Below are positions 33,563-58,406 of a stretch of 64,000 bases of DNA, piece by piece. The stretch is taken from positions 22,891 to 86,890 of the forward strand of contig JBAYTZ010000014.1 of assembly GCA_041675285.1 (NCBI GenBank). Direction: 5' to 3'. Each line of letters begins with the position of its first letter. The stretch's first letter is position 1. The stretch comes from Candidatus Delongbacteria bacterium (lineage in GTDB: Bacteria > CAIWAD01). Position numbers and translations under genes: made by a program. Below the pieces are notes generated by a model. The model did no database searches. It was not told the origin of the DNA and worked only from the letters and a program-made list of their open reading frames with translations.

Positions 33563-33883
33563 AAACCGCGAAAAAACGTCCAGGATCATGCCGCCCCGCC
33601 TTGGGGCGGCATTTGTGTGTCAAAGGGATCGCCCACCAGGTGCGTGCGAAAATGTCCGAGAATGGCTGTTCCCGGACGTTGGCGCGGGCATAGAGTGCGT
33701 ACATCACCTGCCGGCAGCCTGGCAAACGGGTGGGCCGGGGGGTGGTCTGGCGCAAAGCGGCAGGCCCCGCCGGGGCATCTTGGCTGTAAGGGGTGCTTTT
33801 GCGCACGCGTAGCTGGCCTATATGCAGAAGCTCCAGTGCTATACTCTTCCACCAATCTTGTTGCCTATTCAAGCAGGAAAGCT

Positions 33884-36800: not shown

Positions 36801-37054
36801 TCAGCCTGACGGCCGGCCCCACCCGCTGGTACTTGGCCGACCTGGAGCAAAACCGCATCCTGGAAGAGCCGGGCGAGATCGTCGAGCATGTGCGCAGCAC
36901 GCCGGAGACGGCGCGGCGCTGCCAAATGGATGAGGTCCTGCTAAAGGACTGGCGCGGGCGCGTCGAGAAGCACATCAAGAACACCTACCTCAAGCGCGTG
37001 GACGCTCCCATCGGCGTCAAGCCGGCTCTGCGTTGCTGGATGGAGGTCAATTGA
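33884..37054 (+). CDS. PLD-nuclease (HKD) domain fused to an SNF2-family helicase (SNF2_N + Helicase_C)
   Basis: HKD motif FHAKAYITHAKLEVVGSQALVGSSNF. Helicase motifs LCDGVGLGKTF (I), VIVDEAHHFRN (II), LISTDVLSEGLNLQD (V), QRIGRVDRR (VI). AGGAAAG RBS. Confidence 0.85.
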   Translation: MSDSTSGRSLFIVDNSVSNWTGIRYLDEWAGIAKSFDVATGYFEIGALLALDGKWQGLDKLRILMGAETTQRTRQALREAVTSRATNRLDNSLEEEKDANPFLRGVPAILDALRRGQIDVRVYDKDKFHAKAYITHAKLEVVGSQALVGSSNFTRPGLTKNIELNIQVQSAREVAQLQEWFEIHWNDAREVTDAVIRIIERQTQEYAPFEIYAKALQEYFRGHELTDTEWEDGQSRMFPVLDRYQKEAYWKLQKIAHAHGGAFLCDGVGLGKTFVGLMLIERLILHEGKRVVLFAPKTAKEGVWERDLKRYLPHIGGISGGADFSNLAVFSHSDLGRKGDFPERFRRMTELADVVIVDEAHHFRNPGTPGDADAEVEPSRYFQLFNLLDNTQRSKTLYMLTATPINNSLHDFRHMVELFSRRQEDWFKSLGIHNLRAHVNKLERDLRQRMASAAVAKTQSTEVALGELTTELQEVLAADPLIGELVVQRSRSYVRESQLREHGKAAVFPVRRPPQVADYSIRKSYGRLLEIFELAFRKEHPLFSLPMYYPLAFPRVEDGSVDPFEESRQKEVVGLIRTQFLKRFESSVASFEISCDRLLKKLLAFLEIHCETERERRLLERCLLQHKDVLGFVHSRQSEIWESEAGEEGESDLIPPEFLARVTKLDRAEYRVEDMIQETLQDVNQIAAFLEEARHFQPKHDDKLRRLVRLLKSKELAGQKVLVFTEYADTARYLKRQLRAEGIEGVGEVDGGTPGSRAQVIARFAPYYNGHSSAEMEAEGGEIRVLISTDVLSEGLNLQDASRMINYDIHWNPVRLMQRIGRVDRRLNPEVEARLLADHPELKGSRGIVHYWNFLPPDELNQLLSLYTIVTRKTLLISRTLGIEGGKLLRPEDMYDDLKVLNAHDAAYEGSRTVVEDLHLEYQALLAAMPELEAKLKALPGAVFSGREAVTAGLRGVFFCYALPALDLETGEFSLTAGPTRWYLADLEQNRILEEPGEIVEHVRSTPETARRCQMDEVLLKDWRGRVEKHIKNTYLKRVDAPIGVKPALRCWMEVN

Positions 37055-37923
37055 TGCCCCGCAAGAAGCAGGATGCCGATCCGCCGACCCTGGGTCGCGG
37101 AGGAGAGATCGTCCTGTTCCAGGAAGGTGGCGTGGGGCGTCTGGAAGTCAGGCTGCAGGGGGAGACCCTCTGGCTGAGCCTGCAGCAGCTGGCCGATCTC
37201 TATCAGCGCGACAAGTCGGTCATTTCCCGCCATCTGCGAAGCATCCTCGCCACGGGGGAGTTGGAGCGTGAGGTAGTTGTTGCAAAAAACGCAACAACTG
37301 CCGCCGACGGCAAGACCTATCAGGTGGACTTCTACAACCTGGACATGATCATCTCCGTCGGTTACCGCGTTCACTCCTTGCGCGGCACCCAATTCCGCAT
37401 CTGGGCCACCCGCACCCTGAAGGACACTTTGGTGCGCGGCTACACGTTGAACGAGAGTCGCCTGCAAGCCCAGGTGGAACGCCTGGAGGGCCTGCTGGCC
37501 GCCGTCCAATTGGTGGGGCGCGTCGCCACGGAGCGCTCCCTGAGCAGCGGCGAGGCCAAGGGCCTGCTCAAGGTCGTGGGCGACTTCTCGCTGGCGCTGG
37601 ACCTGCTGGACCAGTATGACCACGGCCGCCTCTCTCTACGAAGCACGACGGCCAGCGCGGGCCGCGTCCTGGAAGAAACCCGCAGACGCAGGCCCGCGCC
37701 CCGCTGCGCCCTGGTGCTGGGCCGGGTGGACGCCAAGCGGACGCCGGACCGCGCCGCGCCGGTTCTTGCTGGCCGGGGCCTTTGGGCTGCCCGTCCTAAC
37801 CGTCCGCCAAGACGCCCAGCTGGCCACGGCTTTGGGGGTTGGATATGTCCCGTCCGCATCCAGCCGGGGGGCGCGGAAGACCTGGAAGCCGTGGCAAAGT
37901 GGATTGATGGAGGAAAACCGTGA
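37054..37923 (+). CDS. RhuM-family (virulence protein RhuM-like) protein; C-terminal ~90 aa atypical and possibly degenerate
   Basis: LFQEGGVGRLEVRLQGETLWLSLQQLADLYQRDKSVISRHLRSI...DFYNLDMIISVGYRVHSLRGTQFRIWATRTLKD is the RhuM signature. Distal part is R/P/G-rich. Start overlaps the upstream stop. Confidence 0.65.
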   Translation: MPRKKQDADPPTLGRGGEIVLFQEGGVGRLEVRLQGETLWLSLQQLADLYQRDKSVISRHLRSILATGELEREVVVAKNATTAADGKTYQVDFYNLDMIISVGYRVHSLRGTQFRIWATRTLKDTLVRGYTLNESRLQAQVERLEGLLAAVQLVGRVATERSLSSGEAKGLLKVVGDFSLALDLLDQYDHGRLSLRSTTASAGRVLEETRRRRPAPRCALVLGRVDAKRTPDRAAPVLAGRGLWAARPNRPPRRPAGHGFGGWICPVRIQPGGAEDLEAVAKWIDGGKP

Positions 37924-39203
37924 TGGTCGACAAGGGCTTTCCAGCCGGTTACGAGCCGCAGGGGAGCACTGAGGCTGCCGAGTGGTACCGCCTAGCCGCT
38001 GAGCAAGGGAATACAATGGCCCAGCGCAATCTGGGGGTCATGTACTACAACGGCGAGGGCGTGCTGCAAGACTACACAGAGGCTGTCAAGTGGTTTCGAC
38101 TAGCGGCTGAGCAGGGGTACGCGCCGGCTCAGTATAACCTGGGGGTTGCGTGCGCCAAGGGCCTGGGCGTGCCGCAGGACTACGTTGAGGCCGTCAAGTG
38201 GTACCGCCTGGCTGCTGAACATGGGAACGCAGGAGCCCAGTTAAATCTGGGATTCTTGTACCACAGCGGCGAGGGCGTGCCGCAGAACGGCGCTGAAGCC
38301 GTCAAGTGGTACCGCCTTGCGGCGGAGCAAGGCAATGTAAGTGCCCAGAACAACCTGGGAGTCATGTACAAGAGCGGCCAGGGTGTGCCGCAGGACTACA
38401 TTGAGGCCGTTAAGTGGTACCGCCTTGCGGCGGAGCAAGGACATGTAAGTGCCCAGAACAACCTGGGGGACATGTACAGTGGCGGCCAAGGCGTGCCGCA
38501 GGACTACGCAGAGGCCGCCAAGTGGTCCCGCCTTGCCGCGGAGCAGGGGTGCGCGCCGGCACAGTACAATCTAGGGGTTGCATGCGCCAAAGGCAGGGGC
38601 GTGCCGCATAACGACGCAGAGGCAGTCATGTGGTACCGCCTAGCCGCTGCGCAGGGGTACGCACCGGCTCAGTACAACATGGGAGTCATGTACGACGACG
38701 GCCGAGGCGTGCCGCAGGACTACGTTGAGGCTGCCAAATGGTACCGCCTAGCCGCTGAGCAGGGCCATGTAAGTGCCCAGAACAACTTGGGGGGCATATA
38801 CGGCGGCGGACAAGGCGTGCCGCAGGATGACGCAGAGGCTGCCAAGTGGTTCCGCCTAGCAGCGGAGCAAGGCCATGTAGGTTCCCAGTACAACCTGGGG
38901 GTTGCGTGCCACCTCGGCCAAGGCGTGCCTCAGAACTACGCGGAAGCAGCCAAGTGGTACCGCCTAGCCGCTGAGCATGGGTACGCACCGGCTCAGTACA
39001 ACCTGGGTGTCATGTACAACGACGGCCGAGGCGTGCCGCAGGACTATATCATGGCTCACCTGTGGTGGAACCTTGCTGCCACCAGCGGGGATGAGGACGC
39101 GGTGAGGGGTAGAGGCACTGTGGCTGGCAAGATGACCCCTGCCCAAATCGCAGAGGCGCAACGTCTCGCCCGCGAGTGGAAGCCCACACCGGAGAAGCCA
39201 TGA
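37923..39203 (+). CDS. Sel1-repeat (SLR/TPR-like) protein, ~11 tandem 36-aa repeats
   Basis: Repeating AEAVKWYRLAAEQG.A.AQ.NLG.MY..G.GVPQDY units. GGAGG RBS. Stop overlaps the methyltransferase start. Confidence 0.85.
   Translation: MVDKGFPAGYEPQGSTEAAEWYRLAAEQGNTMAQRNLGVMYYNGEGVLQDYTEAVKWFRLAAEQGYAPAQYNLGVACAKGLGVPQDYVEAVKWYRLAAEHGNAGAQLNLGFLYHSGEGVPQNGAEAVKWYRLAAEQGNVSAQNNLGVMYKSGQGVPQDYIEAVKWYRLAAEQGHVSAQNNLGDMYSGGQGVPQDYAEAAKWSRLAAEQGCAPAQYNLGVACAKGRGVPHNDAEAVMWYRLAAAQGYAPAQYNMGVMYDDGRGVPQDYVEAAKWYRLAAEQGHVSAQNNLGGIYGGGQGVPQDDAEAAKWFRLAAEQGHVGSQYNLGVACHLGQGVPQNYAEAAKWYRLAAEHGYAPAQYNLGVMYNDGRGVPQDYIMAHLWWNLAATSGDEDAVRGRGTVAGKMTPAQIAEAQRLAREWKPTPEKP
37960..39110 (+). repeat. DNA-level tandem repeat (period 108 bp) encoding the Sel1 repeats
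   Basis: Recurring ...gtggtaccgcct.gc.gc.gagca.gg... units visible in the sequence. Confidence 0.6.
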
Positions 39204-42200
39204 GCAAGACCCAAGACCGGAACTGGGAGCGCCTGCGCTCCATCAAGACGATCGAGGAGCTGCTAGCCTATTTGAGGGAGGAGCTTGACTGGCCGCTCGA
39301 AGGCGCGGACGTCGAGGACGTCGCCTTCGAATACACACCCGAGGAGCTGGGCCTGGAGCCCGCCCTGGCGGTTAAGATCGATTCCATTCACCGTCTGCGT
39401 CCGCTGAGCACGCACCAACCCTGGGGCATTTTCTTCGTCGACTTCGAGCCCAAGAATCTGCCCGTCACGGCCCTGCGCCGCATCCTGGGCCGCGTGGTCT
39501 TGAAGAAGCGCGCCAAGGGCAGCGCGCAGGCCTGGCACGCAGACGACCTGCTCTTCATCTCCACCTACGGGCAAGGGCCCAGCCGCCAGATCTGCCTGGC
39601 GCACTTCTCCGCCAGCGAGGGAGCGCGCGACCTACCCACCCTCAAGGTGCTGGGCTGGGACGAGCAGGACACGGCACTGCACCTTGCCCACGCCGCCAAC
39701 ACCCTGGTCAAGCACCTCACGTGGCCGGAAAACGAGAACGACCTGGAGATCTGGCGCAAGACTTGGAGCGCAGCCTTCACGCTGGGGCATCGGGAAGTCA
39801 TCTCCACGGCCAAGGATCTCTCCATTCGGCTGGCGGCGCTGGCGAGGGCGATTCGCCTGCGCATCACCACGGCGCTGGCGATCGAGAGCGAGAGCGGCCC
39901 GCTCACGCGTCTGATGCATGCCTTCCGCGAGGCCCTGGTCCACGACCTGACGGTGGAGAGCTTCGCCGACATGTACGCCCAGACCATCGCCTACGGCCTG
40001 CTCTCGGCGCGCATCACTGATCCACACAAGAAGACTGCTGACGATTTCGCAGGTCACTTGCGCACCAACCCCTTCCTGCGGGAGCTGATGGAGACCTTCC
40101 TGAAGGTGGGTGGACGGCAAGGGAAAGCGGGCGGGTCAGGCATCGACTTCGATGAGCTGGGCGTCTTCGATGTGGTGGAGCTGCTGGACGACGCCAACAT
40201 GGAGGCCGTCGTCCGCGACTTCGGCGACAGGAACCCACAGGAAGACCCAGTCATCCATTTCTATGAGGAGTTTCTTCGGCATTACGATCCAGGTGAGAAG
40301 AAAAAGCGTGGCGTCTTCTACACGCCGCGCCCGGTGGTAAGCTACATCGTGCGCTCGGTGGACGAGCTGCTGCGAACGGAGTTCGGCCTGGAGGACGGGC
40401 TGGCCGACACCACCACGTGGGGCGAGATGCTACAGCGACAGCCCGGCCTGCAGCTGCCCAACCTCTCAGAGGACTCCGACCACCCGCGCCTGCTGGACCC
40501 GCAGCATCCCTTCGTGCAGATCCTCGACCCGGCCACGGGCACGGGCACCTTCCTCGTTGAGGTCATCGAGATCATCCACCGCACGATGACCACCAAGTGG
40601 ACGGCCCACGGTCACAGCGAGAAGCAGATCGAGGCGCTCTGGAACGCCTATGTGCCGCGCCACCTGCTGCCGCGCCTGCACGGCTACGAGCTGCTCATGG
40701 CGCCCTACGCCATCGCCCATCTCAAGATCGGCCTCAAGCTCCATGAGACGGGCTACCACTTCGACAGCGAGGAGCGGGCACGCATCTACCTGACCAACGC
40801 CCTGGAGCCGGCCAACGACAAGCAGATCACGACGGCCATGCTGCCGGCGCTGGCGCACGAAGCTCAAGCGGTCAGCATGATTAAACGTCACCAAAGGTTC
40901 TCCGTCATCATTGGTAATCCTCCATATGCAAGAGATTCCGCAAACCGCAGTGATTATGCGGAGAATCTCGTAGCAATCTACAAGGAGGACGTGAGGAATG
41001 AACGAAACATCCAACCTCTGTCTGATGACTATGTGAAATTCATCGGGATGGCTCAAGCCGTAATGTCATCATGCGGTACAGGAATTGTTGGATTCATCAC
41101 AAATCACAGCTTTATTAAGGGAGTAATTCATCGAGGGCTAAGAAGACGTGTTTGTCAGTTCTTCCAGAGGGCATACTTTTTGGACCTTCACGGCAACTCG
41201 AACATCAACGAGCAGCCGCCAAAGGACATTGAGGACGAAAACGTCTTTGACATTCGACAAGGTGTTGCAGTCTCATTGCTGACCAGAGTTTCCGCTGTTG
41301 TTGGTTATAAAGACCAAACTAAAGTTTCTGAACTCTGGGGAAAGCGGACAGAGAAATATGAATATTTACTGAAGCAAAGACATGGTGATAATGATTGGAT
41401 TCTCGTTGAACCAAAACCGCCGGAATACGAACTCATTGTAGCCGGTGATGGATCTACTCAAGTTGAATTTGATTCGTTATTCCACCTGCATGATTGGTTT
41501 CCAACTTCAGCGACTGGATTTATCACGCACCGTGACGAATTGGTGATCGATTATGATCAGTCAAACCTTATGCGAAGGATTCACGATTTAGTGGATAAAA
41601 ATATTTCTGATGAAGAGGTTATCAAGAAATATTCCTTAGAGAGCAATTCGGACTGGAATCCAATTGATGCTAGAAAACAACTTCGGGCAGTAAAGGAGTT
41701 ACAAGAAAGAGTTGTTCGTTGCACTTATCGCCCGTTTGATAGTAGATGGTGCTGGTGGGGACGAGAACTAATGGATCGCCCGCGTCAGGAGTTATTTGAG
41801 TTTTTCGTAAAACCTAACTTGACGCTGTTATGTAAACGACAGAACAAAAGGACTCCTTTCTCTTACGCATTTGTTGCCTCTGAAATAACAGAAAGTTGCA
41901 CATTTGAGAGTGCACATGCGAATAATGTTGCGTTTCCAATCTTCGTCCACACAAATGACCTGTTGTTTGGGAAGAACATCATTCATCCAAACATTGGTGA
42001 TGAAATTGTAAGTAGAGTTCGAAGACGGCTTAATTTGAATTTAGTTTCGCTTGCTATGGGTGATTTGAAGGTGACCTGCGGGCCGCGCGATTTATTGCAC
42101 TACGTATATGCAACCATTCATGCACCTAGCTACCGGACGAGATATGAGGCGTGCCTGATTAAAAGCTTCCCGCGCATTCCGTTGACATATAATCTGGACC

Positions 42201-42715
42201 TGTTCCGCGACCTCACACTTTTTGGCGGCAGGCTCGTCGCTTTGCATCTGCTGGAGTCGCCCACCCTCGACCACTTCATCACCACCTACGCCGGCCCGCC
42301 CCAACCAGAAGTCGGGCGCGTGGGCTGGTCGGATGGCACAGTCTGGTTGGATGCCGCGGCCACCAAGAAAGGGCAGCCCGCCACGCCCGGCAGAATGGGC
42401 TTCAAGGGCGTGCCCGAGGAAGTCTGGAACTTCCACATCGGCGGCTACCAGGTCTGCGAGAAGTGGCTGAAGGACCGCAAGGGGCGGCGGCTGTCGGACG
42501 AGGACATCGCCCATTACCAGAAGATTGTCGTGGCGCTGAAGGAGACGATCCGCCTGATGGGCGAGATCGACGAGGTCATTGAGAAGCATGGCGGGTGGCC
42601 GGGGGCGTTTGCCGCAGGACCGGCGGCGGGTGCGGCGGACTATCCGACCTGCGAGACGGGGCAACGCAAGGCGGCGGAAACGGGCGACCTGTTTGGGCAA
42701 AATGCGGAGTCTTGA
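39200..42715 (+). CDS. type IIG restriction-modification / PglX-like gamma-class N6-adenine DNA methyltransferase (1171 aa), GC-mosaic
   Basis: Motif X/I GVFYTPRPVVSYIV and LDPATGTGTFLVEV, motif IV VIIGNPPYARDS, long C-terminal TRD-like region. GC drops from ~65% to ~40% between ~40860 and ~42200 within the ORF. Confidence 0.85.
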   Translation: MSKTQDRNWERLRSIKTIEELLAYLREELDWPLEGADVEDVAFEYTPEELGLEPALAVKIDSIHRLRPLSTHQPWGIFFVDFEPKNLPVTALRRILGRVVLKKRAKGSAQAWHADDLLFISTYGQGPSRQICLAHFSASEGARDLPTLKVLGWDEQDTALHLAHAANTLVKHLTWPENENDLEIWRKTWSAAFTLGHREVISTAKDLSIRLAALARAIRLRITTALAIESESGPLTRLMHAFREALVHDLTVESFADMYAQTIAYGLLSARITDPHKKTADDFAGHLRTNPFLRELMETFLKVGGRQGKAGGSGIDFDELGVFDVVELLDDANMEAVVRDFGDRNPQEDPVIHFYEEFLRHYDPGEKKKRGVFYTPRPVVSYIVRSVDELLRTEFGLEDGLADTTTWGEMLQRQPGLQLPNLSEDSDHPRLLDPQHPFVQILDPATGTGTFLVEVIEIIHRTMTTKWTAHGHSEKQIEALWNAYVPRHLLPRLHGYELLMAPYAIAHLKIGLKLHETGYHFDSEERARIYLTNALEPANDKQITTAMLPALAHEAQAVSMIKRHQRFSVIIGNPPYARDSANRSDYAENLVAIYKEDVRNERNIQPLSDDYVKFIGMAQAVMSSCGTGIVGFITNHSFIKGVIHRGLRRRVCQFFQRAYFLDLHGNSNINEQPPKDIEDENVFDIRQGVAVSLLTRVSAVVGYKDQTKVSELWGKRTEKYEYLLKQRHGDNDWILVEPKPPEYELIVAGDGSTQVEFDSLFHLHDWFPTSATGFITHRDELVIDYDQSNLMRRIHDLVDKNISDEEVIKKYSLESNSDWNPIDARKQLRAVKELQERVVRCTYRPFDSRWCWWGRELMDRPRQELFEFFVKPNLTLLCKRQNKRTPFSYAFVASEITESCTFESAHANNVAFPIFVHTNDLLFGKNIIHPNIGDEIVSRVRRRLNLNLVSLAMGDLKVTCGPRDLLHYVYATIHAPSYRTRYEACLIKSFPRIPLTYNLDLFRDLTLFGGRLVALHLLESPTLDHFITTYAGPPQPEVGRVGWSDGTVWLDAAATKKGQPATPGRMGFKGVPEEVWNFHIGGYQVCEKWLKDRKGRRLSDEDIAHYQKIVVALKETIRLMGEIDEVIEKHGGWPGAFAAGPAAGAADYPTCETGQRKAAETGDLFGQNAES

Positions 42716-42750
42716 TCGCAGCTAGGTGGGCGCCAGGCCGAGAGGTGAAC

Positions 42751-43455
42751 ATGGAACCAGGTCCGATCCGTTACCGGGACTTGCCGGATGATTTCCTGCT
42801 GCGGGCGGAATTGGTTTTTCACGCCATTGAAGATGCCGGCCTGATGGAGCGAACGGATTTCCTCGTCAACTTCCAGCGCGAGATTCATCCCATGCGGGAA
42901 TTGATGCTGTGGGAGCGGCTTGCCGTGGCCTATCGGAGCCGGTGGCGCAACCGAGCGGGCTCGGTCGCGGAGCGCAAGTCGTGGTTGACCTTGCTTCTTC
43001 TGGCATCCAGTGGCGCGACGGCACATGAAGGGGATCTGACTGGGGCACTGGAGCTGGAAGAAGCGCGCTTGGCCTTTCAGGAGGCCGCCACGGCGGGTAG
43101 AAACTGCTTGTCGAGCGCCGTTGATGCGCGTGCGGTGAAACAAAGCACCCTGGCGTTGGCGGCGATTCTGAGTCGGGACATTGGTCGTGCCATTCAATTC
43201 CACTGGAACCAGATCGACCGGCTGTTGGAATCGGAAGCATGGGAACCGGATGAGGTGGAAGCTCGGCTGCGAGAACTGCATGCCACGGTGGACGAACTGG
43301 CTGATGAACGCGAAAACCTGTCAATAGAACTCAATGACCGGTCTGATGAGCTGGAAGCCATGATCCAGGGGAAGCGCGAGATACTTGAAAGGGAGCGTCG
43401 CGAGGAGCTGCTGCGGCAATCCAGTCTGGGCAATCTATTCGGCGAGGAGAACTGA
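42751..43455 (+). CDS. hypothetical coiled-coil protein (first gene of a 3-gene operon)
   Basis: GAGGTGA RBS. 234 aa. C-terminal coiled coil (ELHATVDELADERENLSIELNDRSDELEAMIQGKREILERERREE). Confidence 0.45.
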   Translation: MEPGPIRYRDLPDDFLLRAELVFHAIEDAGLMERTDFLVNFQREIHPMRELMLWERLAVAYRSRWRNRAGSVAERKSWLTLLLLASSGATAHEGDLTGALELEEARLAFQEAATAGRNCLSSAVDARAVKQSTLALAAILSRDIGRAIQFHWNQIDRLLESEAWEPDEVEARLRELHATVDELADERENLSIELNDRSDELEAMIQGKREILERERREELLRQSSLGNLFGEEN

Positions 43456-43456
43456 G

Positions 43457-44620
43457 ATGGACGTGCTGGAACTCCAACACATCGGGCAAATCCAAAAAGC
43501 CCGAATCGAGTTTGGGGATCTCACCGTTTTGGTGGGTCCTCAAGCCACTGGCAAGAGCATAACACTACAGCTACTCAAGTTGTTGGTTGACATGCGCCAC
43601 GTTCAGGAAGACCTTCGTCGTCACGGCTTGGACTGGGGCGGCAAGCTGCCTGAGTTCCTTGACCTCATGCTTGGCGAAGGCATGCACTCCATCTGGTCTG
43701 AGAAGAGCACGATTCGCTGGCAGAACCGCGATGTGGACATGGTAGCGCGCGCCAAGCGTCGCATCAAGGCGCCTGAGCTTGGGCAAGGAGAGCAGATGTT
43801 CTTCATCCCAGCGCAACGAGTATTGACTCTGCGCGACGGCTGGCCGCGCCCCTTCACTGATTACTCCGCCGGTGATCCCTTCGCAGTGCGGGAGTTCAGC
43901 GAAAAGTTGCGCCTGCTGATGGAGCAGGAATTCGTTCAGGGTGATCAGCTCTTTCCACGCGCTAATCGGTTGAAACAAATCTATCGAGACGAGTTACGTG
44001 CTCACGTGTTCGCCGGGTTTGATTTGAAGGTGGACCGTTCCCGACCACAGAAGCGTATGGTTCTAGGTAATGCACATGGCGAACTCCCGTTTATGGTTTG
44101 GTCGGCGGGGCAACGAGAATTCATGCCGCTATTGCTCGGCCTCTATTGGTTGATGCCACCCGGGAGAATGGCAAAGCGGAAGTCCGTGGATTGGGTTGTT
44201 GTAGAAGAGCTTGAAATGGGGCTCCATCCGCGAGCTATCAGCCTGATGTTACTGCTGGTGCTGGAGTTGCTCTCACGCGGCTATAGAGTCTGTTTGTCGA
44301 CACACTCACCACAAGTCTTAGAAATGGTTTGGGCCTTGAATCACTTACGTGAGCAGAATTCCAGTGAGTCAAAGTTAGGCAGATTGTTTGACGTGCAAGC
44401 TGGCACTCAATTAAAGGCTGTTTTTCATGATACAATGAAGCGAGTGTTTAAGGTCTACTATTTCGAGCGTGATGGTGCAGTACGAAACATTTCTGGGCTT
44501 GATCCAGGTTCAACAGAGTCCTTTGTTGCAGGTTGGGGAGGCCTAACGGACTTCAGTGCAAGAGCCAATGAAGTTGTGGCATCTGCCGTGGCTGATGGGC
44601 TGCGGAGGCGCAAAGCATGA
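43457..44620 (+). CDS. ABC-type (AAA_15/AAA_21-like) ATPase of the OLD/abortive-infection type
   Basis: Walker A LVGPQATGKS. Distal D-loop/Walker B block DWVVVEELEMGLHP typical of the AAA_21 family. Start 2 nt after the upstream stop. Confidence 0.7.
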   Translation: MDVLELQHIGQIQKARIEFGDLTVLVGPQATGKSITLQLLKLLVDMRHVQEDLRRHGLDWGGKLPEFLDLMLGEGMHSIWSEKSTIRWQNRDVDMVARAKRRIKAPELGQGEQMFFIPAQRVLTLRDGWPRPFTDYSAGDPFAVREFSEKLRLLMEQEFVQGDQLFPRANRLKQIYRDELRAHVFAGFDLKVDRSRPQKRMVLGNAHGELPFMVWSAGQREFMPLLLGLYWLMPPGRMAKRKSVDWVVVEELEMGLHPRAISLMLLLVLELLSRGYRVCLSTHSPQVLEMVWALNHLREQNSSESKLGRLFDVQAGTQLKAVFHDTMKRVFKVYYFERDGAVRNISGLDPGSTESFVAGWGGLTDFSARANEVVASAVADGLRRRKA

Positions 44621-45072
44621 CTTTCACACAAGCAGTTGCAGCCTCACCTGACATTGCAAGCGCATATCAGCGAGGTTTAGGAGCATTGAAGGCTGTAGAT
44701 CGTGCTCATATTACGGTCAATAAGTCCACAAAACTCAAGGGAAGTGTTGATATTGATTCAACGTTGCAATCTAAGTGCCCAACTGAACACCGTTGGGATT
44801 ATGGGATTGGTAAGTCACAGGGTGGGAAGAAGGGTGATAAAGTCATCTGGGTTGAAATCCATCCAGCAAAAGACGGTGAAATCAATACGATGATGGACAA
44901 ATTGGCCTGGTTGAAGTCTTGGCTTCAGACATCCGCTACTGACTTGGATGCATTGTCGCGTGAATTCATATGGATATCAAGCGGAAAAACTACCATCACG
45001 CAAGGTAGCCCCGCAGCGAGAAAAATGGCCTTGGCTGGGTTGAGATTAGCGGGACATCATCTTCATCTTTGA
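44617..45072 (+). CDS. hypothetical small protein (151 aa) translationally coupled to the ATPase
   Basis: 4-nt ATGA overlap with the ATPase gene. No recognisable motif. Confidence 0.45.
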   Translation: MTFTQAVAASPDIASAYQRGLGALKAVDRAHITVNKSTKLKGSVDIDSTLQSKCPTEHRWDYGIGKSQGGKKGDKVIWVEIHPAKDGEINTMMDKLAWLKSWLQTSATDLDALSREFIWISSGKTTITQGSPAARKMALAGLRLAGHHLHL

Positions 45073-45281
45073 TGAATAGTGAGTAGCAAAGCGGATCAAA
45101 CCTGACCCGCTTCGCATAAGACGCCAGCTGACCATCAGGCCTGGGATTCCAGTGGAACCAATGTTTCCAGCCGTTCTGCCACCTACTCCACACTCTCCTA
45201 TAAGGCCTGCATCCGCCCCATCACTGTGGCCATCTGCGCTTGCAGCTCTGCGTCCTGTGTAGTTGTCGTGGGGTTGTTCTT

Positions 45282-45494
45282 TCAGCGGGTTAGGTTGGAA
45301 ATGAACTCGCCGTTCTCGTCGTAGACCTTGATGATGCAACGGCCAGAGCCGATGGGGTCGGGGACAACTGTGTAGGTCCAGCCTTCGGCCTCGCCCTTGC
45401 CCAGGTCGGTCGCGGCCTTCTCGGCTTCAGCTTCGGTGAGGAATACCCAGGTCGGGGCGTTGGTGAGGAGCAGCATGTTCATGGTCCCTTTCAT
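45282..45494 (-). CDS. hypothetical small protein
   Basis: ORF track. Part of the leftward small-gene module. Confidence 0.35.
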   Translation of the reverse strand: MKGTMNMLLLTNAPTWVFLTEAEAEKAATDLGKGEAEGWTYTVVPDPIGSGRCIIKVYDENGEFISNLTR

Positions 45495-45540
45495 AGGGCC
45501 AGAGCGGGTGTTCGAGCCGGCCCTGGCGCGCCGCTTGTTG

Positions 45541-45786
45541 TCAGGCAGCCGTCTCGTTACTGACCATCTCGGCGTTTGCAGCGGCGTCCTCGATGGCCTC
45601 TGCCAGTGCGGTGACTTGGGTGGTGATGTTGGCCAAGTCGTGCCGGAAGCGCTTGTCGGCGCCTAGCTGTGCCTCGGCCTGCGCCAGCGTTGCTCGCAGC
45701 GATTCAACCTGGGCGCTGGCGGTCCCAAGCAGGAAGAGGCCGTTCTCAAGGGGCTGGGCGGTTGTTGTCATCGTCTTGCGTGCCAT
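45541..45786 (-). CDS. hypothetical small protein (Ala-rich)
   Basis: ORF track. Confidence 0.35.
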   Translation of the reverse strand: MARKTMTTTAQPLENGLFLLGTASAQVESLRATLAQAEAQLGADKRFRHDLANITTQVTALAEAIEDAAANAEMVSNETAA

Positions 45787-45817
45787 GGTTGTCCCTCTAT
45801 GCGTTGTTGTCGGGAGT

Positions 45818-46036
45818 CTATTCAGCGGTTGGCAGAAAGAAGCTGCGGGGGCTTCTGATGGTGCGGCAGTGAATCCAGCGGGTGAAAGCCGCTACGTTCC
45901 GACGTTTCAGCTCAGTCGAGATGCTGATTGCCAGCTCGGTGTTTGATGGGTCGTTCATGGTGTATTCCCAGGTATCGATCAGCCAAGTCAGGCTCTGCGT
46001 CTTAAGGTTGTTTCCGGTGTTTGTCTCGTTCGTCAT
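45818..46036 (-). CDS. hypothetical small protein
   Basis: ORF track. Preceded on the minus strand by conserved promoter repeat copy 1. Confidence 0.4.
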   Translation of the reverse strand: MTNETNTGNNLKTQSLTWLIDTWEYTMNDPSNTELAISISTELKRRNVAAFTRWIHCRTIRSPRSFFLPTAE

Positions 46037-46048
46037 TGGTCTAACTCC

Positions 46049-46094
46049 CGTTTTGATGGGTATAATTACGCAGAGACACTTTTCATAAGCAAGT
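46049..46094 (-). promoter_or_regulatory. conserved ~45-bp promoter/operator repeat, copy 1 (plus-strand CGTTTTGATGGGTATAATTACGCAGAGACACTTTTCATAAGCAAGT)
   Basis: Three near-identical copies (46049, 47097, 48011), each immediately 5' of a minus-strand ORF. Minus-strand reading gives TTGACT/TTGCTT -N17-18- TAGTTA/TAATTA. Confidence 0.5.
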
Positions 46095-46345
46095 TAAAGG
46101 TGAGAAATATTTTGACTTATTTAAATAGCTGAGACAGTCAAGAGCTGACGGGATGCTGGTAAAGCAGAAGCGCTCCATCCGGGGCGCTTTCAGCAATTGG
46201 TTCTGTCACAGCTTTAGGGCGATGCGCCATGGGCTGCTTAGAACGACCGTTTTTATAGCGGCGATAGCTTGGCATGGGTCGATGCCTGCCGACACTTTTT
46301 AGCGACGGCGGCTTCCACGTTGTTCATGGGGTGGTACTTGGGAGT

Positions 46346-46684
46346 TTAGCTTTGGCTGCCGGTCATGTAGACGAGGCCGTACTTGTGCCGGAGACCCAGG
46401 CCTTGGGGCTTCAGGTGGCGCGCATCGAGCAGCATGCCGTCGTCGGTTGGCTTGGCTTCCGGCGTCCTGGTGACGGTCCAGTCGTTTTCCAGGTTCACTC
46501 CGCAGGCGATGTTGCCGGGTTGGTTCAGCCAGCGGCAGGCCTGCTCGACCATGTCGCACTCATGGGAGCTTGGGAAGCTGTGCAGGCCTCGGCCCAGGTG
46601 GATGGCGAAGTTGCTGGGGAAAACGTGGGCGGTGAAGTTGTGGGCGCCGGTGGCGGTGTAGGTGACCGTGTAGTTGGTAGTCAT
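46346..46684 (-). CDS. hypothetical protein
   Basis: ORF track. Confidence 0.35.
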   Translation of the reverse strand: MTTNYTVTYTATGAHNFTAHVFPSNFAIHLGRGLHSFPSSHECDMVEQACRWLNQPGNIACGVNLENDWTVTRTPEAKPTDDGMLLDARHLKPQGLGLRHKYGLVYMTGSQS

Positions 46685-46744
46685 GGGTTCGTTCCCTTGT
46701 TGGCCAGGGCTGGGCGCCTGGGCGACCCAGCCCCAGGTGGTTGC

Positions 46745-47059
46745 CTAGAAGCGGTCGCAGACGGCCCAGGCGGCCTTGCTGCCGTAACCGAGCTGGTTAC
46801 CTTCGATTAGGTAGATGATCTCGGGGTCGGTGCTGGGCTCCCTGCGCGGGCCGACCTCGTCGTCTTCCAGCTCGATGTCCAGCCCCATCAGGCGCTCGGC
46901 CTCTTGCTGGTCCTCGTCGTCGGTGATGGCGCTCTTGGTGGTGAGGCCAAGCAGGGAGTTTTCAAATGGCCAGCTCTGCTGGGTCATCAGGCGGACCTCA
47001 GCGTCCGGGTGTTCCTGGGCCAGTTCTTCCAGTCGGGCGATCAGGTCGGTGAGTAGCAT
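46745..47059 (-). CDS. hypothetical acidic protein
   Basis: ORF track. Preceded by promoter repeat copy 2. Confidence 0.4.
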   Translation of the reverse strand: MLLTDLIARLEELAQEHPDAEVRLMTQQSWPFENSLLGLTTKSAITDDEDQQEAERLMGLDIELEDDEVGPRREPSTDPEIIYLIEGNQLGYGSKAAWAVCDRF

Positions 47060-47096
47060 GTCCGTGTCTCCTGTTTTCCCGGCGGGTGTCTTGTCC

Positions 47097-47142
47097 GCCT
47101 TTTGTTGGGCATAACTACGCAGAGTGATACTCGTTAGTCAAG
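47097..47142 (-). promoter_or_regulatory. conserved ~45-bp promoter/operator repeat, copy 2
   Basis: CTTTTTGTTGGGCATAACTACGCAGAGTGATACTCGTTAGTCAAGT. Confidence 0.5.
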
Positions 47143-47289
47143 TAAAGATCGAGTAATAGTGGACTAAATAGTTGAGATAGTTTTATAGAAGTGAATTAAG
47201 AATAGATAAAGCATAAGGCGCTTTGAAGCGCCTTATGCAGCAATGAGTGTGACCTCCCAATCCGACTCCCTGTCCAGGGTCGTCGTTGG

Positions 47290-47562
47290 TCATGCCTCCT
47301 GACTGGGCGGGGCAGGCGGCAGTTTGGCTTCCAGGTTACTGGCCACCAGCTCCAGACTGCCCTTCAGCTCCTCCAGGCGGCCCATCACTGCGCCCATCTG
47401 TTGCTGCAACTCGGCGTCCTGCCCAAGCTGCAGGAATGCCTGCTGAAGGGCGACCTCCAGGCGAGTCACCCGCTTGCGCGCGCCGTCCAGATTTGTCTTG
47501 CCTTCCGCCAACTGCCCGGCCACAAAGGCCTTCACGTCCCAGTTCTGCTTTGCCATGATCAA
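47290..47562 (-). CDS. hypothetical coiled-coil protein
   Basis: ORF track. Confidence 0.35.
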   Translation of the reverse strand: MIMAKQNWDVKAFVAGQLAEGKTNLDGARKRVTRLEVALQQAFLQLGQDAELQQQMGAVMGRLEELKGSLELVASNLEAKLPPAPPSQEA

Positions 47563-47592
47563 ATCTCCCTGTTGATTGTGTGGTGATTCCGG

Positions 47593-48024
47593 TTACTTGC
47601 TGGCGCGGCCCAGCTCAAAGGCGGCGCGCAGGGCGTCCTTAAGCTGTAGGACGCTAACCTCTTGGAAATCGAGGGCGTCCATCCGGCGCTCCTTCAGCGT
47701 TTTGATCCCGAGGTGGACCTGGGCCAGGACCTCCATGCCGGCGTCAATCGTCGCGTCGTCGGCGCCAGGCTGGGCGGCGGCGGCCGGCGCCTGCCAGAGC
47801 TTTTGGGCGGCGGGGAAGCCGATCCACTCGCCGTTCGCTCCCAGGCCGCGGTTGGCCATCTCGTCGCGGGCAAGCTGGACCGTGTCCAGGGTGTCAGTTG
47901 CCATGAGCTGGATCAGGTTGGTTTTAAAGAGCTGCATGAAAGCGGCTTCGTCTTCGCCCAGCATGTTGATCAGGCCTTTGCGCGTCATCTTCGTCATGGG
48001 TCCATCTCCTCGTTTGGTGGGCAT
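47593..48024 (-). CDS. hypothetical protein
   Basis: ORF track. Preceded by promoter repeat copy 3. Confidence 0.4.
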   Translation of the reverse strand: MPTKRGDGPMTKMTRKGLINMLGEDEAAFMQLFKTNLIQLMATDTLDTVQLARDEMANRGLGANGEWIGFPAAQKLWQAPAAAAQPGADDATIDAGMEVLAQVHLGIKTLKERRMDALDFQEVSVLQLKDALRAAFELGRASK

Positions 48025-48055
48025 AACTACGCAGAGACACTTTTCTTAGTCAAGT
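48011..48055 (-). promoter_or_regulatory. conserved ~45-bp promoter/operator repeat, copy 3
   Basis: CGTTTGGTGGGCATAACTACGCAGAGACACTTTTCTTAGTCAAGT. Confidence 0.5.
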
Positions 48056-48175
48056 TGGTTTTGATAAATAGTCAGTAATTAAATTCTTCAAAAAGGTCTT
48101 TACGTGAGCACGACTTGAATCAAGAGAGGAAACGCCCCTTTCGGGGCGCTTTGGTCATGCTGATCAATTCCAAGG

Positions 48176-48625
48176 TCAAGTTCCGGGTGCCTGATCCCGC
48201 AGTTGCTCCAACTTTGTTTCCACCCATTCCGCCGGGTAGAGCAAGAGCAGCCACTCGCCAATCTGATTCAGGCACTGCAGGTAGGCACCACGGGCTCCGT
48301 ACTTGGACACGCTGCGCGTGATGACGTGGTTGTGGCCATTCACCTGCACGCGGCCTTCCCAGGCGTGGCGGACCCACACCTTCCCGGATCCCCGCACTTC
48401 CGTGCGCAGCGTGGGGTAGAGGTAGCGGCTGGTTTCGATACGAAGCTGCTCGGGGCTCTGCTGCAAGCCCAGTCGGACTTCCCGGCGCTGAGTGCGAAGC
48501 CGGCGCATGGCCAGGGCGGCAGGAGTTTGGCTATAGGGTTCTGCGCCCATGAGTTGCGATTCTGTGGACATCGTCATCTTTCTGTTTGATAGGGTTAAAG
48601 TCGTAAAAACACAAGGAATGATCAA
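48176..48625 (-). CDS. hypothetical protein
   Basis: ORF track. Immediately upstream (5') of the XerC-like recombinase gene's 3' end region. Start uncertain. Confidence 0.35.
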   Translation of the reverse strand: MIIPCVFTTLTLSNRKMTMSTESQLMGAEPYSQTPAALAMRRLRTQRREVRLGLQQSPEQLRIETSRYLYPTLRTEVRGSGKVWVRHAWEGRVQVNGHNHVITRSVSKYGARGAYLQCLNQIGEWLLLLYPAEWVETKLEQLRDQAPGT

Positions 48626-48750
48626 TAAGACCGAGTTGAACAGACATTGATCACTTCGTAAACCAACAAACCGCTCCTGTCAGGACTTCGAGTATACATC
48701 CTGTGAATGCCCCTCCAAACCTGCCACGGCTCCCGTTTGCCTCCCCATGA

Positions 48751-49599
48751 TCAGTTCCGCCTGCCCTCGATGGCGGCCCTAAGCTCCTCGTCGGCCACGT
48801 GGGCGTAGATGGCCGTGGTCTTGGGGCTTTCGTGGTCCAGGGCCAGTTGCACGAGGCGCAGGTTGCCCGTCTTCTTCAGCAGGCTGGTGGCAAAAGTGTG
48901 CCTCAGAACGTGTGGGTGGATTCCGCGAGAAATCCCGGCCAGGGCCACCCAGAAGTCCAGGAGCCGGCGGATGTGCCGGGTGCCGATGCCCTTCCCGGTC
49001 GTGCTGCGGAAAAGCGGAGCCTGCGCCGGCTGGCGCGCAACCAGCAGCTTCAGGATGTCCCGGGTTTCCACCGGCAGGAACCGGGTTCGCTGCTTGCCCC
49101 CCTTGGTGCTCACCCGAATCATCTTCTCGCTTAGTTCCACGTCGCCCACGGTCAGGGCGGCGGCCTCGGCCACACGCAGGCCTGTGTCCAAGAGCAGGCA
49201 GAAGAGAGCACGGTCCCTGGGCTGGCTGGTCACGTCTGAGCGTGTGCGTAGGGTTTTACGCAGCGCCTTCTCCTCGGCTTCGCTGAGGTAGTCGGGGGCG
49301 GCGGTATGAATGCGCGGCATGCGCATGGCGCCGACCTCAGCCGCCAGGGGGTGCTTGGCCCAGGTCAGGAACTGGTTGAGGACGGTCAACGCCCGTCGCT
49401 GAGTCAGGCTTGACCGCCCCTCTCGGACGAAGTACCGTGTGATCCGATCCATGGTCAGGGTTTTCAAGTCGGAGGACTGGCCATCCTCTTCCAGGGCTGT
49501 GGCCAGCCGGCGCAGTTCGGCCAAGTAGGGGACTCGCGTGCTGTAGGCCAGCTGCCTGGACTGGAGGTGCTCGTCGAAGCGCTGGAAGTGGGCGCGCAT
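48751..49599 (-). CDS. tyrosine recombinase/integrase (XerC/XerD-like, phage integrase family)
   Basis: C-terminal HVLRHTFATSLLKKTGNLRLVQLALDHESPKTTAIYAHV (H-x-x-R ... Y). N-terminal SAM-like core-binding domain. Start taken at MRAHFQRF (rc ATG 49597-49599). Confidence 0.8.
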   Translation of the reverse strand: MRAHFQRFDEHLQSRQLAYSTRVPYLAELRRLATALEEDGQSSDLKTLTMDRITRYFVREGRSSLTQRRALTVLNQFLTWAKHPLAAEVGAMRMPRIHTAAPDYLSEAEEKALRKTLRTRSDVTSQPRDRALFCLLLDTGLRVAEAAALTVGDVELSEKMIRVSTKGGKQRTRFLPVETRDILKLLVARQPAQAPLFRSTTGKGIGTRHIRRLLDFWVALAGISRGIHPHVLRHTFATSLLKKTGNLRLVQLALDHESPKTTAIYAHVADEELRAAIEGRRN

Positions 49600-49723
49600 G
49601 GGGTCTCCGTGGTTGGGTGGCGGCAAGGCGGGATCGCAAGGTCCCGCCCGCGCATGTCTCTGGACATGAGTCTGCACTAGTCGGGTCCGAAAGTCAAGTC
49701 TCAACCCATTGAGAGTAAACGAG

Positions 49724-51310
49724 ATGGGCATCAAGCCTCCGCGGCCAGCCAAGCTCTCCTCCGACGAGATGGCCTTTGCCCAGATCCTCTTGGATCCGGT
49801 CGCGTTCGCCGCGGCCTTTCTGACTCAGCTGGATGGAGAGACCGCCGGGCAGCCGATGGCGCTGTGGCCCCACCAGCAGGAGGACCTGCGTGAGCCAGAC
49901 CTGCAGGTGGTCCACCAGGACGGCCGGGCGGTGGGCAAGACCGTGGACATCGTGGTTCAGGTCCTTCACTACGGCGTGACCGCCCAGAACGGGCGCATGC
50001 TGGTGACGGCGCCCAACGACGGCCACGTGAACAAGGTCATCGAGGAGGTGGAGGCCCACCTTCAAAACAGCGAGTTCCTGCTGGAGATGGTGGCCATCGA
50101 CCAGAATGGCCGGCACCGGATCACGCGCAAGCCCTATTACCAGATGACCTGGAAGAACGGCACGATCATCTACTTCCGCCCCGCCGGCCCCACGGGCAAG
50201 AGCGTGCGCGGCCTCCACTGCGATCGCGTGCTGGTGGACGAGGCCGCCTGGTACCCAGAGCCTGCCTGGCGGGCCCTGCGCCGGGTCTTGAACCGCGGCG
50301 GCCAGATGCGCTGCTACTCGAACCCCAATGGCCTGCGCAACACGACGTATTACCGGATTACCCAGAAGGGCAGCGGCTGGCGGGTATTCCACTGGCCCAG
50401 TTGGATCGTGCCTGGCTGGACGGAGGACGACACCGAGCGGGAAGCCCGGTTCTACGGCGGCCGCGACACGGCAGGTTTCCAGCACGAGGTGGTGGGCGAC
50501 CACGGCGCGCCGAGCTATGCGGCCTTCAACATCCGCCAATTCCAGGCCTGCCAGCGCAAGCTGGAAAAGGCATATAAGGTGATCCGCCTGGACGGCGAGG
50601 AGTTCGAAGCTCTGCAGAGCGTGGACGAGGCCATCGACCGCATGTACGGCCTGCTCGACCAGCTCGAAGAGAATCGCGGCACCTACTGGCTGGGCGGCGA
50701 CCTCGGCTACACGAACGACCCCAGCGAGCTCACCGTCTGGCTGGACGACGAGCGCGGCCGCCTGGTGCCCGTTCTGCGCGTCCACAACGAGCGGCTGCCC
50801 TACACCTACCAGGCGGCGCTGATCGCCATCCTCGACGACCACTTCGACTTCGCCGGCCTTGGCCTTGACGCTGGCTCCAACGGCCTGGCCGTGGAGCACA
50901 TCCTCACCACCGAGGACCGCTACTCGGGCCACCAGTTCGCCTACCGCGTGGAGACCTACGACTTCGGCGGCACGCTGACCACGGGCTACGATCCCCAGGG
51001 GCGGCCCAAGAACCAGCGCACCAAGGAGTACATGACCAGCCTGATCAATGGGCGGCTGGCGGCGCGCACCATCCTTTTCCCCGCCGGCGACGCGGACCCG
51101 GACTGGGAGGACCAGTTCTGCACGCAGACCTACTCGCAGAACCAAGCGGGTCGACTGATCTATTCCAAGGGCAACGACCACATCATCGACAGCGCGCGCT
51201 GCGCAGCCCTGAGAAAGGAGCGCGAGCTCCTGAAGCAATTGGTGGACGACAACTCCTCCAGCGAGGCTGAATTCGTCATGCCGCTGGTCACCGACAACGT
51301 CTTCGTCTAG
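49724..51310 (+). CDS. terL: phage terminase large subunit
   Basis: P-loop GRAVGKT near the N-terminus. ~530 aa with an ATPase N-terminal half and a nuclease-like C-terminal half (acidic residues DGEEF...DLGYTNDPSE). Position directly upstream of the portal. Confidence 0.7.
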   Translation: MGIKPPRPAKLSSDEMAFAQILLDPVAFAAAFLTQLDGETAGQPMALWPHQQEDLREPDLQVVHQDGRAVGKTVDIVVQVLHYGVTAQNGRMLVTAPNDGHVNKVIEEVEAHLQNSEFLLEMVAIDQNGRHRITRKPYYQMTWKNGTIIYFRPAGPTGKSVRGLHCDRVLVDEAAWYPEPAWRALRRVLNRGGQMRCYSNPNGLRNTTYYRITQKGSGWRVFHWPSWIVPGWTEDDTEREARFYGGRDTAGFQHEVVGDHGAPSYAAFNIRQFQACQRKLEKAYKVIRLDGEEFEALQSVDEAIDRMYGLLDQLEENRGTYWLGGDLGYTNDPSELTVWLDDERGRLVPVLRVHNERLPYTYQAALIAILDDHFDFAGLGLDAGSNGLAVEHILTTEDRYSGHQFAYRVETYDFGGTLTTGYDPQGRPKNQRTKEYMTSLINGRLAARTILFPAGDADPDWEDQFCTQTYSQNQAGRLIYSKGNDHIIDSARCAALRKERELLKQLVDDNSSSEAEFVMPLVTDNVFV

Positions 51311-51319
51311 GAGGGCTCG

Positions 51320-57285: not shown

Positions 57286-57791
57286 GCGAGGACATGCGCG
57301 AGCAGCAGCGGCGAGTGTTCCAGGTCTATCTGGACCGTCTGCACGAGGACCCGGGCTGCGAGGTGGGCGTCACCTGGGTGGCGGACCGGGACACGCTGGT
57401 GTCCTTCTCAGCCGGCATGCGCGTCCTGTCTGCGACGCCACTATTCAACAGGGCGACAGGCGAGATCGAGCGCTGGCGCCACTGGCTGCTCTTCGCCGAG
57501 ATGGGCATCTTGGACACCTTCGGCGGCGGCCACCCCGTGCACTGCTTCGAATGTGAATTGCTGGAGCAGGATGCCCTGCACGTCAGGCTGCGGGAGGTAG
57601 GCGGCACCTACGAGTTCCTCATCTGCCACAACGACCCGCACGACGACGACGAGCGCCAGGCCGCGGTGTATCACGATTGGGCGCAGGCCGTGAAGGAGCT
57701 AGGCGGCGAGCCAGCGCTGCAGGCGCTGCTTGACCGCCAGGCGGAGCAGTGGACGCAGACGCTGCGGACTACGGGGGAGATGAAGCCATGA
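57282..57791 (+). CDS. hypothetical protein; candidate immunity protein for the toxin-like C-terminus of the MuF fusion
   Basis: ATGA-coupled directly downstream of the MuF-fusion gene. 169 aa, acidic. Confidence 0.4.
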   Translation: MSEDMREQQRRVFQVYLDRLHEDPGCEVGVTWVADRDTLVSFSAGMRVLSATPLFNRATGEIERWRHWLLFAEMGILDTFGGGHPVHCFECELLEQDALHVRLREVGGTYEFLICHNDPHDDDERQAAVYHDWAQAVKELGGEPALQALLDRQAEQWTQTLRTTGEMKP

Positions 57792-58204
57792 GGGTGCACT
57801 GGTTCTACGTCTTCGACCTGGAGGCTGAAGGACGCAAGAAACCCATCGGCGCGTGGATTCTCCAGGACGGTGTGCTCGATTACGTCTTCGACCCCGCCTA
57901 CCCGGACGACGAGGCGATCCCATCAGACCTCATCAATCGCATGCTAGAGGTTGGCGAAAAGGTGCTTGGCCTGGAAGGTTTGAGATACTGGCGAGAGCAC
58001 GTGGGCTATACCCATAGCGCTAGCCAGATCAAGGAAGAAGACGTGACGGATTACACCATGTGGTTCTGGGAAAGGCAGGCCGCTGTGACCGAGGGCTGTA
58101 GTTTGAGACGCGGAGGGGGGCTCGGGGCAGGCGCTGGCCAACTTCCGACGAAGAGCGCAATTGCCCAGACTGAGACCCGTTGGACGGCAATGAGTTCGAC
58201 TTAG
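57788..58204 (+). CDS. hypothetical protein
   Basis: ATGA-coupled. 138 aa. Confidence 0.35.
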   Translation: MRVHWFYVFDLEAEGRKKPIGAWILQDGVLDYVFDPAYPDDEAIPSDLINRMLEVGEKVLGLEGLRYWREHVGYTHSASQIKEEDVTDYTMWFWERQAAVTEGCSLRRGGGLGAGAGQLPTKSAIAQTETRWTAMSST

Positions 58205-58406
58205 CCGACCTGCCTTGTTTGCCTCCGCATCCACGAGCCCGTCGTCCTCAAGGTTACCCTCTTTAGGGACATACTGGAAGATCACCATGCACGCCAGGCA
58301 TTGGAGAACTTGGAGATCCAGAAAGCGCTAGAGCATCGATGACGAGTTGCAGATTCTTCTTCAGTGTAAAGAGTATTAAGTCAGAGTCTGCGCTAAATGG
58401 GTTAAA

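Follow-up and report, generated by a model that had tools for sequence, protein, structure and literature searches.

Three short genes close a helicase/methyltransferase cluster in a genome of Candidatus Delongbacteria bacterium. Do they form a defence system of their own? The genes, named A, B and C here, are same-strand open reading frames (ORFs) at positions 42751-45072 of the 64,000-nucleotide stretch of DNA that was analyzed (the window). An initial annotation, made from the letters alone, had proposed them as an uncharacterized three-gene abortive-infection or defence module, i.e., a coiled-coil protein, an ABC ATPase and a small partner. Our analysis leads to a different answer: the locus is a further instance of the catalogued two-gene phage defence candidate (PDC) PDC-M56 plus an orphan gene, A, and no new three-gene system.

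Genes B and C are full-length, adjacent, same-strand and same-order matches to the PADLOC models PDC-M56A and PDC-M56B. PDC-M56A aligns with gene B at E = 3.5e-150 and 498 bits, over residues 1-379 and profile positions 1-379 of 382, and PDC-M56B with gene C at E = 2e-44, over residues 2-147 and profile positions 7-146 of 151. The 145 untested candidates called PDC were drawn from genes embedded in BREX, DISARM and Type I restriction-modification (RM) systems (Payne et al., 10.1101/2024.01.29.577857). PDC-M56, a "guilt-by-embedding" candidate of this origin, appears in their supplementary table as a two-family cassette, FAM_00005>>FAM_02395 (10.1101/2024.01.29.577857). Uncharacterized, in the sense of uncatalogued, is hence not the right word for B and C, since both match a listed family over their full lengths.

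Does this family comprise a third gene? We found 22 homologues of gene C in a large protein collection, and a pattern scan of 185,579 species-representative genomes gave 116 relatives, from which 80 loci were kept. These belong to Planctomycetota, Acidobacteriota, Verrucomicrobiota, Alpha-, Beta-, Gamma- and Deltaproteobacteria, Chloroflexota, Armatimonadota and others. Conservation was assessed on a sample of 88 related loci from many phyla, two of them cut by contig ends, so that the order of B and C could be tested in 86. A homologue of gene B lies directly upstream of gene C in every one of these 86 loci. Gene A, in contrast, had no tblastn match in the 88 related loci, and a profile of its domain, run against all six-frame ORFs of the related loci, recovered the window copy only. 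When the neighbouring ORFs of the 88 loci were clustered, no third family occurred at more than 11 of them. As in PDC-M56, there are thus two genes with no obligatory third. The trio is not co-conserved, an outcome that the initial annotation itself had named as speaking against its proposal, and the three-gene system does not stand. Because A is absent elsewhere and B and C are strictly paired, the conserved unit is the pair; judging from the loci compared, the functional unit is probably a widely scattered, strictly paired two-gene cassette.

The distribution of the pair is patchy and includes a mobilizable plasmid of Opitutaceae bacterium TAV5 (CP007054.1). There the homologue of gene C (38% identity) occupies positions 7001-7450 of the extracted locus (L095), just downstream of the hypothetical ATPase OPIT5_00420; the gene table of PLSDB for CP007054.1, which is incomplete, has no gene entered at this place.

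Gene B contains the full ABC ATPase motif set: Walker A (GPQATGKS, residues 27-34), Q-loop (IPAQR, 117-121), ABC signature (SAGQ, 216-219), the Walker B/D-loop block VVVEELEMGLHP (247-258) and H-loop (STHS, 281-284). The initial annotation had picked out Walker A and the distal block and called the protein an AAA_21-type ABC ATPase; both motifs are present in the translation, and Pfam AAA_21 matches at 5e-16. In 28 homologues of gene B, the catalytic residues K33, Q120, S216/G218/Q219, E250/E251 and H283 are invariant, which argues for a working ATPase. A single-sequence search of the PDB with gene B gave nothing significant. With a family profile of 28 members, the nearest solved relatives were all defence ATPases, i.e., the class 2 OLD nuclease ATPase (6p74, 2e-8), Septu PtuA (8ee4, 8e-5), the ATPases of retrons Ec78/Ec83, and GajA. 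Other PADLOC models of defence ATPases (AriA, NsnB, HEC-01A, Old, PtuA and AbiLi) match gene B partially, at about residues 208-300, and are orders of magnitude weaker; NCBIfam scores for PtuA and MAD3 lie far under their cutoffs. By its sequence, gene B can be placed in the OLD/PtuA/GajA/AriA clade of compact ABC-type ATPases. The earlier view, that the module is a defence candidate with an OLD/PtuA/AriA-like ABC ATPase at its core, is supported.

The partners of this ATPase had been described as free of any known effector motif. This does not hold for gene C, as its structure model matches PD-(D/E)xK nuclease folds. At the sequence level gene C found no match in Pfam or, searched as a profile, in the PDB, and NCBIfam and PHROGs gave nothing useful. 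The AlphaFold2 model, computed on a 22-sequence alignment, has a mean predicted local distance difference test score (pLDDT) of 92 and a predicted template modelling score (pTM) of 0.88. In this predicted structure we recognize the core alpha-beta-beta-beta-alpha-beta fold of the PD-(D/E)xK superfamily. Foldseek matches are weak (best E 4e-3, template modelling score ~0.35), and those at the top are mostly PD-(D/E)xK nucleases: Card1, the Avs3 nuclease domain, Cdn1, MUS81, BamHI and XisH. The invariant residues of the family include D61, E80, H82 and K95. D61 opens the second core strand of the model and E80-x-H82 lies in the third, the canonical location of the D...(D/E)xK motif. The third motif position is the invariant H82 instead of lysine, and the invariant K95 stands in the next helix; D61, E80-x-H82 and K95 together make up the candidate active site. 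Replacement of the lysine is known in this superfamily, e.g., from BamHI. From fold matches that are distant but consistent, gene C is predicted to be a PD-(D/E)xK-fold nuclease, and its active site is a variant one that may be competent for catalysis.

The three co-directional genes are present in the ORF list as initially placed (cf. Table 1); A and C carry the locus tags WC326_12990 and WC326_13000. Their reported spacing was correct for the 4-base-pair (bp) overlap of B and C (ATGA), whereas A and B are separated by 1 bp (TGA g ATG) and not by 2 bp. Every start codon is preceded by a Shine-Dalgarno-like site, i.e., GAGAGG (42740-42745) for A, GAGGAG (43444-43449) for B and GGAGG (44604-44608) for C, and the ribosome-binding site of gene B falls within gene A. 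An alternative in-frame TTG start of gene A at 42712 would overlap the stop codon of the preceding methyltransferase gene (TTGA). We regard A, B and C as real coding sequences and not as chance ORFs, because B and C have many homologues and 61 further proteins carry the N-terminal domain of A (E<=1e-3). GC content at third codon positions (GC3) declines along the operon, from 0.67 in A through 0.665 and 0.495 in the first and second halves of B to 0.41 in C; flanking genes lie at about 0.75-0.9. This pattern is consistent with horizontal acquisition and mosaicism. Around the trio, we found no meaningful flanking direct repeats or att-like sites and no tRNA genes, and consensus matches to promoter and terminator signals occurred only at the level expected by chance.

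What might the pair do? We think it rather probable that B and C are an ATPase-gated nuclease defence cassette, a member of PDC-M56 that has one lineage-specific extra gene here. The mechanism is drawn from what is known of Septu, PARIS, Gabija, OLD and HEC-02 and from the anatomy of B and C. By analogy with Septu, PARIS, Gabija and HEC-02, an oligomer of ATPase B would bind C and hold it inactive. ATPase B would then sense an infection cue (e.g., a protein of the phage, foreign DNA or an altered nucleotide state) and would release or license C for nucleic-acid cleavage. Such cleavage could stop the phage directly or through abortive infection. The defence ATPases nearest to the B profile support this reading, and so do the recurrent embedding beside restriction-like genes, the patchy spread, the plasmid copy and the drop of GC3 in gene C.

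Several points weigh against a defence function. Many homologous pairs sit between housekeeping genes and have no defence neighbours (e.g., loci L004 and L005-L008), and a search of a phage genome collection with gene C found no copy. The histidine at the third catalytic position of gene C leaves catalytic competence unproven. The coupling of A and B across a single base pair means that gene A may matter functionally in this genome. The searched literature contains no experiment on PDC-M56, and the term occurs in none of the main texts searched; other PDC candidates, e.g., PDC-M63 and PDC-S04, failed when tested.

The sole unusual element of the locus is gene A with its unnamed domain family. 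Residues ~1-100 form a four-helix domain, and residues ~96-230 form long coiled-coil helices that are found nowhere else. The initial description as a coiled-coil protein agrees with the structure model, in which most of the protein is helical and the C-terminal helices are long (pLDDT 84.6, and >90 across residues 1-90). Gene A had no match in Pfam, PADLOC, NCBIfam or PHROGs, a profile of its domain found nothing significant in the PDB, and a fold search returned generic helical hairpins only. In a word-index search of 5.8 billion proteins, the only match of gene A was its own entry, which is labelled hypothetical protein and comes from a Candidatus Delongbacteria metagenome-assembled genome (MAG). 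HMMER, run against 1.84 billion representatives, gave 62 matches at E<=1e-3, one of them A itself, and none extends beyond residues ~1-120. A match is either a protein of ~130 residues or the C-terminal domain of a protein of ~290 residues, with TIR or, in one case, HNH at the N-terminus. In gene A the motif of the domain reads L-x-PGPIRH ... F-x-RD-x-x-PE-x-E-x-x-IWE, and among homologues L-x-PGPIRH ... RD-x-x-PE ... IWE. The TIR part of the fusions resembles the PDC-S66/ThsB type; the homologues P0032, P0034, P0041, P0054 and P0044 comprise ThsB/PDC-S66-type TIR proteins and one HNH protein, with the A domain as their C-terminal half. This helical domain of ~100 residues, absent from Pfam and PADLOC, may merit a family definition of its own.

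A standalone homologue of the A domain is flanked by an excisionase-like helix-turn-helix protein and a large serine recombinase. Others neighbour AbiEii and cas genes, HicAB and an IS1595 transposase, or a giant kinase/STAND-like protein. Gene A was probably picked up from the gene stock of mobile elements when the B-C cassette settled at the 3' end of the restriction-like helicase/methyltransferase cluster. It is a lineage-specific addition outside the conserved cassette, and the family does not require it.

Gene A could still work with B and C in this one genome. In such a genuine three-component system, gene A would contribute an extra sensor or adaptor subunit, whose N-terminal domain reads a cue and whose coiled coil docks on the ATPase and modulates B and C. 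The near contact of the stop codon of A with the start codon of B, the ribosome-binding site of B inside A, and the equal GC3 of A and the first half of B point in this direction. Moreover, the A domain is portable, and its place C-terminal to ThsB/PDC-S66-type TIR and to HNH is frequent for sensor or regulatory domains in single-protein defences. We nevertheless hold a three-component system to be unlikely: neither tblastn nor the hidden Markov model of the domain detected A at any of the 88 related loci, standalone homologues of the domain never adjoin AAA_21 ATPases in the loci examined, and the fold search gave no more than helical hairpins. The tight spacing, too, is common to the entire cluster. 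From the start of the PLD-SNF2 helicase gene (33617) to the end of gene C (45072), all genes are co-directional and are joined by overlaps or by gaps of at most 35 bp; all seven genes of the cluster are tightly coupled, not the trio alone. That the N-terminal domain of A is a new portable immunity sensor or adaptor, and the locus a three-component PDC-M56 variant with trigger recognition by a separate subunit, is a doubtful proposition.

The cluster runs, in order, from the PLD-SNF2 helicase through a RhuM-like gene, a Sel1-repeat gene and a Type IIG/ISP-like methyltransferase to A, B and C, and the methyltransferase ends 35 bp before gene A. A defence island next to a methyltransferase/helicase operon had been proposed, and the neighbourhood is indeed defence-rich by its Pfam and PADLOC matches (Table 1).

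Table 1 Features of the window at and around the trio, with their domain and model matches
Feature	Position	Strand	Length	Matches and remarks
PLD(HKD)-SNF2 helicase	33617-37054	+	1145 aa	First gene of cluster; Helicase_C, PLDc_2, ResIII, SNF2-rel_dom; PADLOC C3a139 HKD+Snf2 2e-59, DrmD 3e-33
RhuM-family gene	37033-37923	+		Virulence_RhuM 1e-22; PADLOC PDC-S23 1e-62, PDC-S05 6e-60
Sel1-repeat protein	37920-39203	+		Sel1 1e-121, 11 repeats; at least 9 tandem 108-nt units
Type IIG/Type ISP-like N6-adenine methyltransferase with specificity domain	39176-42715	+	1179 aa	Type_ISP_C 1.9e-75, N6_Mtase, Eco57I; PADLOC REase_MTase_IIG 1.2e-181
Gene A	42751-43455	+	234 aa	
Gene B	43457-44620	+	387 aa	
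Gene C	44617-45072	+	151 aa	
Tyrosine integrase	48751-49752	-		Downstream of gene C
Weak terminase-like ORF	49709-51310			Downstream of gene C

The RhuM-family gene and the Sel1-repeat gene both lie between the helicase and the methyltransferase. PDC-S05, which has a RhuM domain, is reported to have protected E. coli against T7, T5 and T4 in a cold-seep study (10.1101/2024.09.26.614923). Within the methyltransferase, residues ~600-950 (window 40976-42025) have a GC content of 0.42 and a GC3 of 0.40, compared with GC3 values of 0.84 and 0.76 in the rest of the gene. This suggests a recent swap, possibly of the specificity region.

With such neighbours, B and C might lack autonomy and serve a DISARM-, Druantia- or Type ISP-like system, formed by the helicase and methyltransferase next to them, as its effector or restriction arm; the methyltransferase would then protect host DNA. 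Some loci agree with this: a homologous Type ISP-like methyltransferase lies upstream of the pair, on the same strand, both in the window and in the related locus L031, and the window methyltransferase has no nuclease domain recognizable by Pfam. Moreover, an Eco57I-type methyltransferase is found directly upstream of the pair in nine related loci and a DruE/DrmA-like DEAD+MZB helicase directly downstream in seven, sometimes with an HKD-SNF2 helicase nearby. Methyltransferase or helicase neighbours of this kind occur within 7 kb in only 15 of 89 loci, however, many pairs have unrelated housekeeping genes on both sides or lie on a plasmid without a methyltransferase, and the associated families vary by locus (Type_ISP_C or Eco57I/TaqI_C; SNF2-PLD or DruE-like). 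The window helicase already has a PLD nuclease domain of its own, and in loci L029 and L031 the pair behaves as a repeat-flanked inserted cassette. We therefore give a dependent role of this kind little credence.

In these two MAG loci (L029, 5979-9240; L031, 6005-8601), the pair is found inside a cassette array, in which three to four direct copies of an element of ~95-113 nt serve as separators. This repeat codes for the C-terminal tail of the Type IIG methyltransferase that lies upstream (...EREIDRLVYELYGLTxEEIxxVEE), and the pair has on either side a copy of a small two-gene module (86 and 90 residues; the two copies are 98% identical). The arrays look like products of cassette insertion or shuffling in which methyltransferase-tail repeats recombined. 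The trio of the window has no such repeat on its flanks.

The pair might also be selfish and serve addiction or stability, or act in DNA metabolism outside defence (e.g., repair or recombination), and travel with mobile DNA without any anti-phage benefit. This would fit its patchy distribution and mobilizable plasmid copy, its copies inserted between housekeeping genes, the small module that accompanies it in L029 and L031 and the PADLOC PDC candidates that gave no defence when tested, but we judge it improbable, as the nearest characterized relatives of ATPase B are all anti-phage systems, the pair recurs inside restriction-like systems, which is why PADLOC lists it, and neighbour clustering across the 88 loci brought up no conserved antitoxin-like small partner.

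An ATPase-gated nuclease cassette of B and C thus remains our preferred reading. If active, it would add one more pairing to the ABC-ATPase-controlled nucleases, next to Septu, PARIS, Gabija and HEC-02, and a minimal ATPase of 387 residues with a minimal PD-(D/E)xK protein of 151 residues would be a compact model of effector gating. New for PDC-M56 are a predicted effector fold with residues to mutate, and the description of the pair as a strictly conserved, scattered two-gene cassette. The practical value lies in the corrected annotation, i.e., two catalogued genes and one orphan; the scientific surprise is limited.

Beyond the cluster, the region following gene C (45100-57300) contains small minus-strand genes, one of them with DUF6900, and large plus-strand ORFs up to 57285. 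Together with the integrase and the terminase-like ORF, this suggests a prophage-like region; a tRNA gene and an att-like repeat were sought for 45100-57300 and were not found. Two low-GC islands of the window, at 7000-13000 and 58000-62500 (0.41-0.50 versus 0.60-0.75 elsewhere), are probably further horizontally acquired segments.

How does the locus compare with known systems? For the surrounding cluster, we considered DISARM class 1, which consists of the helicase DrmA, DrmB (DUF1998), a PLD nuclease, DrmD (SNF2) and the methyltransferase DrmMI; the cluster does not make up this set. SNF2 and PLD are present (DrmD 3e-33), but the methyltransferase matches DrmMI at just 1.2e-3 and the window has no DrmA/DruE-like helicase; the DEAD+MZB helicase of this type is absent from the window and present in related loci such as L001, L016 and L022.

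For the genes themselves, the initial annotation had set the system apart from Septu, PARIS and AbiL as described, and this is supported: the matches to their models cover only part of the protein and fall far short of family level, and the locus encodes no HNH or TOPRIM partner. With Septu and the PtuAB proteins of retrons Ec78/Ec83, the pair shares the ATPase clade and the two-gene layout of ATPase and nuclease. It differs in its partner, which is PD-(D/E)xK-like in gene C and HNH in PtuB, and in the shorter ATPase of 387 residues. Septu was rejected, with an NCBIfam PtuA score of 30.1 bits against a cutoff of 500, a partial PADLOC PtuA match at 1e-6 and no HNH in A or C by Pfam and PADLOC. 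With PARIS, OLD and Gabija, gene B has the Walker B/D-loop/H-loop region in common (AriA 1.3e-15, Old 1.3e-9, 6p74 2e-8, and GajA), but these matches are confined to residues ~208-300, and TOPRIM/DUF4435 is absent from A, B and C by Pfam and PADLOC. PARIS was set aside because the AriA match covers residues 208-288 of gene B alone and neither A nor C has TOPRIM/DUF4435. OLD and Gabija membership was rejected on partner domains and sub-threshold scores. For AbiL, the AbiLi match is weak (1.4e-5), and neither A nor C matches AbiLii in PADLOC.

HEC-02 consists of an ABC ATPase and a NERD-type PD-(D/E)xK nuclease and was reported active by Payne et al. (10.1101/2024.01.29.577857). Like the pair described here, it combines an ABC ATPase with a small PD-(D/E)xK-fold partner and is embedded in restriction-like systems. 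The match of gene B to HEC-02A is weak and partial, however (1.8e-8, residues 240-291), and gene C matches neither HEC-02B nor NERD; we hence consider HEC-02 a different family. PDC-M56 itself was defined from copies within BREX, DISARM or Type I RM systems, and likewise the pair in the window ends a helicase/methyltransferase cluster. What distinguishes this copy of PDC-M56 is the extra, unrelated gene A coupled upstream.

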